Assembly: GCA_963733035.1 (NCBI GenBank)
Contig: CAVTBU010000005.1
Span: 2,922,951 to 2,986,950 of the forward strand
From: Pirellulales bacterium
GTDB taxonomy: Bacteria; Planctomycetota; Planctomycetia; Pirellulales; PALSA-1355
DNA length: 64,000 nt
Reading direction: 5' to 3'
Position 1 is the first letter of the stretch. Each line of letters starts with the position of its first letter. Made by a program: the position numbers and the translations under genes. Positions 25,216 through 27,364 of the stretch are shown in pieces. The notes beneath the pieces are model-generated. The model had not been told where the DNA came from, made no database searches, and saw only the letters and a program-made list of their open reading frames with translations.

Positions 25216-26599
25216 ATGAAGAAGCCCCGCATTCTGATCGTCGAGTCCGACGCCGCCGCGAGTCGGCAGTGTCAGAAAGCCCTGGCCGCGCTCGGAGCAC
25301 CGGAATTTGACACGGTGGCGCAGGCGGACGAGCGCTTGAACGGCTGCGCGGCAATTCTTTCGATCTGGTCGTTGTCAACGCCGACACGGAAGCGCCGGCC
25401 GATTTCGACCTGCTCCAGGCGATTCGGCAGCTCGACGCCGAGCTACCGCTGATCGTCACCACCACGCGGCCGTCGATCGATTCGGCTACCGAAAGCTTGC
25501 GATTGGGTGCCGGAGACTATTTGCCCCAACCCGTCGATGCGGCGGCCTTGGCCAGCGCGGCCAAACGCTTGCTTTCGGGACGTCGGTTGGGGGCCGAGTA
25601 CGAGCTGTTGCGCCGCCAGGTTGAACGGCCCTATGGCTTCGACGATATGATTGGCGGCTCGGCCGCCATGCGCAAGGTTTTCGAGACGATCGAACAGGTG
25701 GCCAACTCGGACGTCGACGTGCTGGTCGTGGGTGAAACGGGAACGGGCAAGGAGTTGGTCGCCCGCAGCATTCACCGTCGCAGTCGGCGGGCGAAGGGGC
25801 CATTCGTGCCGGTCGATTGTGGAGCGATTCCCGAGAACTTGTTGGAGAGCGAGTTCTACGGTCACGAGAAGGGAGCGTTTACCGGAGCCGAGAGCCGCAG
25901 AATCGGACTGCTCGAGTTTGCCGACCGCGGCACGTTCTTTCTGGATGAGCTTGGCGAGCTACCGATGCTGTTGCAGGCGAAATTGTTGCGGACGCTGCAA
26001 GAGCGGAAGATTCGCCGCGTGGGCGGGCGCGAGGAGATCGAGGTTGACGTGCGCGTGGTGGCCGCCACGGCGCGGAATCTCGACGAGATGATCCGTCAGG
26101 GGCAATTCCGGCAGGATCTTTACTACCGGATCAACGTGGTGCGGATCGACCTGCCCCCGTTGCGCGAGCGAGGTGACGACATCGGACTGCTCGCAGAGTA
26201 CATGGCCCAGCGCTATGGCCGGGAGATGGGCGCGAGGTCAAGAGTATTACCCCCGAAGCGTATCAGGTCCTTTCGCAGTATCGCTGGCCGGGCAATGTCC
26301 GCGAACTGCAAAACGTGATTCGGCGGGCGATTGCACTGGCCAAGGGGCCGCTGATTACGCTCGAGGACTTGCCCGATGAAGTCGTGGATGTTGCCGGCGA
26401 GGGGCGTTCGACGGGCGATGTCGGCTACTTCCAGCTCCGTGATGAGCACCTGGCGCAGTTTGAACGCCAATACCTCCGAGAGTTGCTGGCCAGGCATCAT
26501 GGCGACGTGCGGACGGCGGCTTTCGAGGCCAAGCTGCCGCGGGGAACGTTGTATCGGTTGATGAAAAAGCACGACTTGGACGGAGGGAGTTTTCGATGA
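25216..26599 (+). CDS. sigma-54-dependent (NtrC-type) activator with degenerate receiver domain (frameshifts near 25320 and 26232)
   Basis: GETGTGKE, ESEFYGHEKGAFTGA, FLDELGE, FRQDLYYRINV, WPGNVRELQN, Fis-type HTH (PRGTLYRLMKK). Confidence 0.9.
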
Positions 26600-26672
26600 G
26601 GCGATTGTCAGTCGTCCTTCACGGTTGGACTCGGTCCGCGTTTTTGGGAGCCGTTTGGAGTTGTGGGGAGCT

Positions 26673-26688
26673 GTCACATCTTTGTGAC
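26673..26688. promoter_or_regulatory. palindrome GTCACA-N4-TGTGAC, candidate upstream activator site
   Basis: Perfect 6-bp inverted repeat about 210 bp upstream of the -24/-12 element. Confidence 0.4.
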
Positions 26689-26898
26689 TCGCGTTTCATC
26701 GGCGCGAAACATCCAAATACTCCGGCAGACGGTCGCAAACAGAGGATTTTCGGGCAAAGCCTATCGGCAGCGCCTCGCAGGCGCGAATATAGCTTTTCCT
26801 CTTCCGATTGCACGGACCCACGCCGTTGAGTTTTCAAGGCCAGTCCCTGCTTCGCTTTACGTACGACAAGGAGATAATCGGCGCGACAAACGGAACTT

Positions 26899-26914
26899 CG
26901 GCACGGGCATTGCT
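26899..26914 (+). promoter_or_regulatory. sigma-54 -24/-12 promoter of glnB
   Basis: cGGCACGGGCATTGCT: GG 26900-26901, 10-nt spacer, GC 26912-26913; matches TGGCACG-N4-TTGCW. Confidence 0.8.
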
Positions 26915-27025
26915 TTTGAAGTGAGTCGCCAACGGAGGAAAGGGAGTCCGGCGGCGAAGGGAGCTTTTCAATCAACACACGCTTGAACAAATTGAGCGAA
27001 ACATCTTTCGTGAAGGGAACGAGCC

Positions 27026-27364
27026 ATGAAAAAGATCGAAGCCATCGTGCGGCATTTCAAAGTTGAAGAAGTCAAGGACGCGCTGAACGCCAAGGGCGTG
27101 GCCGGCATGACCGTGACGGACGTTCGCGGTTTCGGACGGCAAAAGGGACATATGGAAACCTATCGCGGTACTGAGTATGCCGTGGAGTTCATTCCCAAGT
27201 CCAAGATCGAAGTCGTCGTCTCCGACGCCAATGCCCAGACCGTGATCGACGCGATTCTGAAGAGCGCTCGCACGGGTCAGGTGGGCGACGGCAAGATCTT
27301 CGTCAGCGATCTGTCTGGAGCGATTCGGATTCGTACCGGCGAAAGCGACGACAGCGCGGTCTAA
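27026..27364 (+). CDS. glnB: P-II family nitrogen regulatory protein
   Basis: 112 aa; [22 protein letters not shown] (Tyr51), [17 protein letters not shown]. Confidence 0.97.

Follow-up and report, generated by a model that had tools for sequence, protein, structure and literature searches.

We analysed a 64,000-nt stretch of DNA from a Pirellulales bacterium, an uncultured soil planctomycete (GenBank assembly GCA_963733035.1, contig CAVTBU010000005.1, positions 2,922,951 to 2,986,950; hereafter the window), in which a gene for a sigma-54-dependent activator stands directly upstream of, and on the same strand as, a gene for a P-II (GlnB-like) protein. The activator begins with a receiver domain that is missing residues needed for phosphotransfer, and the spacer between the two genes holds three predicted enhancer sites and a predicted -24/-12 promoter; going by these sequence features, the activator is most likely dedicated to this one glnB-like paralog. 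The features of the locus, in window coordinates, are as follows.

25216..26599 (+): sigma-54 activator gene, spread over three assembly frames (Pfam), with a single G absent near 25331 and another near 26227
Layout of this gene (+): pseudo-receiver ~25216-25540; helical linker to ~25630; AAA+ ~25640-26390; HTH_8 ~26450-26596; stop codon 26597-26599
25377..25379 (+): AAC, giving Asn where strand beta3 ends and receivers have the phospho-acceptor, residue 55 once the frames are joined (translation; X1 record 2, a short-read contig, has the same codon)
25527..25529 (+): CAA, giving Gln in place of the Lys conserved in receivers (in DYLPQP), residue 105 (translation, ortholog alignment)
26626..26648 (+): weak terminator-like hairpin (26626-26638) and T run, directly past the activator stop
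26672..26688 (+): predicted enhancer site 1, palindrome TGTCACA-N4-TGTGAC (conserved spacers)
26692..26710 (+): predicted enhancer site 2, imperfect palindrome ending GCGCGAA (conserved column block)
26770..26788 (+): predicted enhancer site 3, its left half degenerate and its right half GCGCGAAT (spacer alignment)
26899..26914 (+): predicted sigma-54 -24/-12 promoter CGGCACGGGCATTGCT, with GG at 26900-26901 and GC at 26912-26913
27026..27364 (+): P-II (GlnB-like) gene, 112 residues, with a canonical T-loop and Tyr51 (Pfam, alignment, NCBIfam)
27463..27500 (+): strong terminator-like hairpin of 12 pairs (27463-27490) and T run

The domain content of the activator is that of a sigma-54 regulator throughout. 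Pfam searches matched Response_reg (33 bits, for the middle frame piece, which is truncated), Sigma54_activat PF00158 (241.7 bits), AAA_lid_14 and, at the C-terminus, the Fis-type helix-turn-helix (HTH) family HTH_8 PF02954 (24.3 bits against a cut-off of 22), while the translation, read directly, carries Walker A GETGTGKE, GAFTGA and Walker B FFLDELGE. An earlier annotation made from the letters alone (the sequence-only reading) had described the Walker motifs, GAFTGA and the HTH as intact, and both Pfam and the translation agree with it. With an AAA+ domain containing these motifs, a Fis-type HTH, an rpoN gene in the same genome (G000:C5:810376) and a -24/-12 target, the protein is, by its sequence, an enhancer-binding protein.

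Since the gene runs through three frames in the assembly, it could be a decaying pseudogene, with both frameshifts genuine and the activator dead in this strain, a reading that we consider extremely improbable. We compared public short-read contigs with the assembly across 25100-27400 (contig depth was low, ~3, and run X1 and the assembly may share a sample), and each frame break proved to be one omitted base. A 183-nt contig over 25271-25452 (run X1 record 2) adds a G behind 25331, with 1 substitution; a 386-nt contig over 25865-26249 (run X1 record 5) and a 151-nt contig over 26125-26274 (run X6 record 28) each add a G behind 26227, with 0 substitutions. Contigs of two runs, matching the assembly apart from the indel and that one substitution, thus hold the missing G at both breaks, because of which we read the frameshifts as assembly errors; the evidence is good, though short of proof. 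Restoring both Gs gives a single 461-codon frame, matching the length of several intact orthologs, and the orthologs of relatives are open frames of 455-675 residues without stops. Further points against decay are that both break sites adjoin G runs, that none of the frame pieces has a damaged motif, that other few-contig, low-completeness relatives have similar breaks (the source genome is itself a 10-contig assembly, scored 92% complete) and that a neighbouring gene is split likewise. This upstream neighbour (21616-25049, minus strand) consists of an 806-residue open reading frame (ORF) with DUF7133, HEAT and GSDH-like domains and a 334-residue cytochrome c ORF in a different frame; relative L049 has one 1137-residue protein with all of these domains, and the split is probably another single-base assembly error.

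The receiver domain departs from canonical response regulators at several positions. The sequence-only reading had placed Asn at the phospho-acceptor and Gln at the conserved Lys, and coordinates and residues both proved correct; in addition the acidic pair after beta1 is E-S here versus D-D in canonical receivers, and the conserved Thr is retained. The window activator thus has no acceptor Asp, no Lys, no D-D pair and no adjacent kinase, and as judged from these residues the usual site of its receiver cannot accept a phosphoryl group. The fold appears to be kept: an AlphaFold2 (AF2) model of L043, an ortholog from the same genus, has block-mean pLDDT (predicted local distance difference test) values of 83-91 over residues 1-120 and five beta-alpha units, with a helix at 108-135 (alpha5) that extends into the linker and low confidence from residue 126. 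A receiver fold that the model indicates is retained, together with missing catalytic residues, places the domain in the pseudo-receiver (PsR), or aspartate-less receiver (ALR), class.

A set of 41 related genomes contains a clear group of activator orthologs (60-86% identity, mostly with intact frames), set apart from paralogs at ~47%. A scan of one genome per species gave 55 ortholog-level loci, all from metagenome-assembled genomes of uncultured Planctomycetota, mostly labelled Pirellulales or Planctomycetia, and a maximum-likelihood tree split them, with 100/100 support, into a Pirellulales clade of 48 loci and a sister clade of seven. Among 30 aligned full-length members of the Pirellulales clade the acceptor residue is Ala in nine, Val in two, Gly in one, Asn in six, Thr in one, Glu in one and Asp in ten, so that Asp is missing from 20/30; Lys is kept in 15/30, and the full canonical residue set occurs in none of the 30. 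The idea that both substitutions are conserved in orthologs, which the sequence-only reading had offered for checking, thus fared unevenly: Asn is fixed in the nearest subclade, that of the window, but not in the wider clade, and the change to Gln is not conserved, the nearest relatives having Q, L, E or H at that position.

The sister clade (57-62% identity) retains a canonical receiver, with the motifs ILIVDDEEG, SDIRMPG, LTGFP and DYLTKPF; the full canonical set is present in four of five members, and Asp, Thr and Lys in all five. In sister loci L083, L084, L088 and L089 the gene for a related PAS-histidine kinase runs right up to the activator gene, and in L086 it is divergent from it, while no match to this kinase abuts the activator in any of the 48 loci of the Pirellulales clade. 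In the window, 22 ORFs scanned across 7.8-45.6 kb contained no HisKA, HATPase_c or amtB match, there being no kinase within 17 kb of the activator, which bears out the earlier statement that neither a histidine kinase nor amtB is adjacent; the search for a cognate kinase was bounded to these ORFs, and an unlinked kinase may lie elsewhere.

The spacer between the activator and P-II genes is conserved in its putative regulatory elements and unconserved in its remainder. Across 25 orthologous spacers the palindrome is present in 22 (0.23 expected from shuffles) and a strict -24/-12 promoter in 23 (0.34 expected), with the looser GG-N10-GC in 25/25; the motif GCG[CT]GA[AC] occurs in 22/25 spacers, at 48 sites altogether. 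The promoter that the sequence-only reading had pointed out, ahead of the P-II gene with Tyr51, is thus conserved to a degree that chance does not account for. The source genome has the strict palindrome nowhere else, and enhancer motifs lie upstream of only one of 64 strict promoter-like sites, the one at this locus. A larger regulon was considered and rejected, as both the strict palindrome and the combination of enhancer and promoter are found only here in the genome; a second match to a composite pattern (palindrome, 200-240 nt gap, promoter), at G000:C5:2869045, was unlike the module and was also set aside.

Across genomes the module co-occurs with the activator and follows its putative P-II target. 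In 24/48 clade loci the next gene downstream, on the activator's strand, is the P-II gene (two loci being too short to judge), so that the suggested linkage to glnB stood for half of the loci and failed for the other half. In all five of the unlinked genomes tested, the best P-II ortholog elsewhere in the genome has the palindrome 342-375 nt upstream together with a GG-N10-GC promoter, whereas 16 loci of other P-II paralogs lack the palindrome. The composite pattern gave 18 matches in 17/41 relatives versus two for a reversed control; 16 of the 18 resemble the module, all of them in genomes with an activator ortholog, and none occurs in the 12 genomes without one. In one clade locus (L062:7302-9478) we observed a different arrangement, with the P-II gene on the opposite strand, preceded by its own GGCAC-N5-TTGC promoter and divergent from the glutamine synthetase gene glnA; no TGTCAC-type palindrome was seen there.

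The sister loci provide a further link between palindrome and activator. In L083 and L089 the same palindrome stands beside the activator or kinase genes, where by our own arithmetic ~0.02 per locus would be expected by chance, and the HTH recognition helix PRGT[LY]YR is conserved in both clades (in 35 orthologs). Because the sister clade carries the palindrome beside different neighbour genes, we take it to be tied to the activator family and not to P-II. The sister-clade genomes contain no close ortholog of the window P-II, only distant paralogs (39-54% identical), and the comparison suggests that the regulatory target changed in the Pirellulales clade. As to what the neighbours are, the palindrome at L083:7280-7297 is beside a multihaem cytochrome gene, and that at L089:3909-4040 (minus strand), accompanied by a -24/-12 site, precedes a fused cbb3 oxidase gene by ~1.1 kb; these positions hint that the ancestral system may have controlled respiratory genes.

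That the activator and the sites are merely coincidental neighbours, the sites serving another sigma-54 activator or factor and this activator controlling something else, we regard as very unlikely. It would fit the presence of ~10 paralogs in the genome and adjacency in only 24/48 loci, but it does not sit well with a module confined to genomes that have an activator ortholog, with the palindrome beside two sister-clade activators whose neighbours differ, or with the lack of any further copy of the enhancer and promoter combination in the genome. The regulatory link between activator and P-II proposed in the sequence-only reading thereby gains comparative backing from adjacency, from the module that accompanies the unlinked P-II orthologs and from the sister-clade palindrome; that it is this activator, rather than one of its paralogs, that binds the sites is what we infer from these patterns.

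The P-II protein itself is highly conserved. It matches PF00543 with 110.8 bits, its ligand-binding residues are canonical, and 23 orthologs show no variation in Tyr51 or the T-loop (mean column identity 91%). It falls short of both NCBIfam equivalog models, scoring 153 bits against a cut-off of 202 for GlnB and 144 against 181 for GlnK. The strong hairpin past the gene implies that its transcript is monocistronic. Elsewhere the genome holds a classical amtB-P-II-glnD cluster (G000:C8:158588-163027; loci L119 and L125), whose P-II paralog, unlike that of the window, is linked to amtB, as well as GlnE (C5:1723473-1725473) and, in all, six P-II family matches. Because of these genes and rpoN we regard the window P-II as an additional paralog and the window circuit as an extra, paralog-specific one that, on this gene content, does not cover the whole nitrogen control of the organism; the usual machinery for P-II modification appears, from the same genes, to be present besides it. 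A third P-II paralog (L121, G000:C6:370495-371188; ~46% identical) has a sigma-54-like site TGGCACGGTGATTGCA 367 nt upstream and no enhancer palindromes, and P-II genes orthologous to it in relatives L142, L143 and L145 have a -24/-12-like site 397-547 nt upstream.

The sequence-only reading had further proposed a feedback loop in which the activator is gated by a ligand or by P-II itself. In the P-II form of this idea, the P-II product would bind the pseudo-receiver in response to 2-oxoglutarate and ATP, or to uridylylation, and would thereby gate its own activator. P-II proteins directly control other sigma-54 activators, namely NifA and AnfA; the two genes are tightly linked here, the module co-occurs with the activator, the P-II protein is canonical in its T-loop, Tyr51 and ligand-binding residues, and GlnD is encoded in the genome. 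All the same, we found no sign of contact between activator and P-II. The receiver surface, with five invariant columns in 30 sequences, is poorly conserved next to a P-II that is nearly invariant (~91%), a mismatch that is unexpected for a co-evolving interface, and the activators known as P-II targets use GAF domains and not receivers. A complex model of a P-II trimer with the receiver and linker of L043 (residues 1-140, custom alignments) scored 0.05 against a mark of 0.32, which weighs neither way. We found no support for gating of this kind, and consider P-II feedback distinctly improbable.

How the receiver has evolved bears on whether it still does anything. Its dN/dS (the ratio of nonsynonymous to synonymous substitution rates) is 0.20-0.44 versus 0.02-0.08 for the AAA+ part, 5-10 times as high, these figures being rough as synonymous sites are near saturation; the domain is, as far as such rates tell, under relaxed but remaining purifying selection. 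Every full-length clade member has it, with no case of deletion, and few parts of the protein are as well conserved as the linker. The faster evolution also fits a lost brake, that is, a constitutive activator whose degenerate receiver restrains nothing, the P-II gene then being governed by the abundance of the activator or of sigma-54. This would be in keeping with the freely varying acceptor residue, with the absence of the GHG motif (discussed below) and with Glu at the acceptor position of ortholog L060, as Glu at that position in NtrC mimics the phosphorylated state. A useless domain would nonetheless be expected to disappear, and the retention of this one in every full-length member, at a dN/dS below 0.5 and with a well-conserved linker, leaves us thinking a constitutive activator unlikely.

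What is observed is an intact gene, a receiver with the residues described, a conserved cis-module that occurs together with the activator, and a lost kinase; starting from this, we think it probable that the window encodes an orphan NtrC1-type sigma-54 activator with a pseudo-receiver, descended from a two-component activator and driving one GlnB-like P-II paralog. The activator would bind, through its Fis-type HTH, three imperfect palindromes of the form TCRCR-N4-YGYGA located 110-230 bp upstream of the -24/-12 promoter, oligomerise there and open the promoter using ATP, the product being a monocistronic transcript of that particular paralog. Its ancestor would have been a two-component activator coupled to a kinase and acting through the same palindrome; within the Pirellulales clade the kinase would have been lost, the phosphorylation site would have drifted and the target would have become the P-II gene. 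By analogy with NtrC1 and DctD, the pseudo-receiver and long helical linker may still form an intramolecular brake, one released by a non-phosphoryl signal such as a ligand or a protein partner. It is also conceivable, though we are doubtful of it, that the pseudo-receiver itself senses nitrogen or carbon status by way of the induced P-II or of a metabolite (2-oxoglutarate, glutamine).

Several observations weigh against the orphan-activator explanation or parts of it. The GHG motif is absent, TTRP standing in its place, and because of this the brake model has the long linker helix for its support, a helix whose AF2 confidence is low from residue 126. The genome encodes ~10 other sigma-54 activators, any of which could use the P-II promoter, and half of the clade loci are without an adjacent P-II gene. 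Ortholog-bearing genomes of other families (G025, G029, G032 and G038) gave no strict composite match. The acceptor Asp is kept in 10/30 orthologs, with Asp, Thr and Lys together in six, and because of this some clade members may still be phosphorylated by an unlinked kinase. Lastly, sister locus L083 has a kinase and yet is without the second acidic residue, which means that this residue alone is not diagnostic.

Among solved structures the best match to the activator is Aquifex aeolicus NtrC1 (PDB 1NY5, 4L4U; E ~1e-86 over residues 6-385, linker included), which has the same domain order and with whose coiled-coil linker the long alpha5-linker helix aligns, NtrC1 and DctD representing the type of receiver that acts as a brake. 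The part of PMC10696123 available to us associates long structured linkers with receivers that brake ATPase assembly until phosphorylation, and gives GHG as a second indicator. NtrC1 has a full phosphorylation site, a partner kinase and GHG, whereas the window activator has Asn, Gln and TTRP, and no kinase was found for it. The third-best PDB match, to 8pb9 (E 1.7e-79, receiver aligned), is FleQ of Pseudomonas aeruginosa, a sigma-54 activator that likewise has an unphosphorylated receiver-like N-terminus and that the accessible part of a review of pseudo-receivers lists as an atypical regulator (PMC12632262). FleQ is a master regulator of flagella and biofilm under FleN and cyclic di-GMP, while the activator here is inferred to target one P-II gene; the scanned ORFs of the window included nothing FleN-like, and the activator is no nearer to FleQ than to NtrC1.

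The proteobacterial NtrB-NtrC system acting on glnK or glnB likewise places a sigma-54 promoter and upstream activator sites before a P-II gene. It differs from the present case in that here no NtrB was found, the receiver appears non-phosphorylatable, the enhancer motif is another one and the regulon seems to consist of one gene; on the intact ortholog L043, TIGR01818 (NtrC) scored 374.3 bits against a cut-off of 558.6, and no equivalog cut-off was reached among the 25 NCBIfam families listed. A regulon survey, in the portion available, predicts sigma-54-dependent P-II genes mainly in Pseudomonadota (PMC12316311). The activator resembles members of the ALR/PsR class in having a recognisable receiver without phosphotransfer residues; the available text of two sources treats pseudo-receivers as a recognised class (PMC12632262, PMC4395418) and contains neither a pseudo-receiver activator tied to P-II nor a planctomycete example. 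With NifA and AnfA the likeness is that a nitrogen-related sigma-54 activator is coupled to P-II. There P-II acts on the activator through a GAF domain (for AnfA, regulation by P-II is described in the accessible part of PMC12093980), whereas the direction would be opposite here, the activator controlling the P-II gene, and the window activator has no GAF. The literature within our coverage, to which subscription journals did not belong, describes no orphan pseudo-receiver activator dedicated to P-II, no account of a stepwise origin of one and no regulation of a planctomycete P-II gene, and we found in it no experimental study of planctomycete nitrogen regulation.

If the explanation favoured here is right, Planctomycetota would include a P-II gene controlled by sigma-54 in a way that the NtrBC paradigm does not cover. 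How pseudo-receivers are activated and switched remains unclear according to the part of the 2025 review at hand (PMC12632262), and a system as simple as this could be used to test it, having one activator, three defined sites, one promoter, one small target gene and a canonical sister clade that still bears the kinase; its value as a natural model is limited by an uncultured host. Should the pseudo-receiver turn out to be a sensor, the locus would amount to a homeostat for one P-II paralog that is self-contained and works without phosphorylation, parallel to GlnD, GlnE and amtB-glnK, as well as a natural and phylogenetically traceable rewiring of a two-component activator from a kinase to a non-phosphoryl input. 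A more general consequence is that frameshifts in assemblies such as this one should not lead to pseudogene calls without read support.

Some minor observations concern the surroundings of the two genes. A sigma-70 consensus scan over 24900-28100 found none, the consensus being one that may not suit planctomycetes, and an Rfam search over 26500-28100 returned only ar35 (E 0.11, far under the gathering score), with no riboswitch or known leader RNA. The large subunit of carbamoyl-phosphate synthase, carB, is encoded ~12 kb upstream (9910-13377, plus strand), and no regulatory link between it and the P-II locus was seen. Past the P-II gene comes a 650-nt gap in which no ORF matched Pfam and the one Rfam match was below threshold, and on its far side, convergent with the P-II gene, a large TPR-CHAT domain protein is encoded at 28010-31279 on the minus strand.

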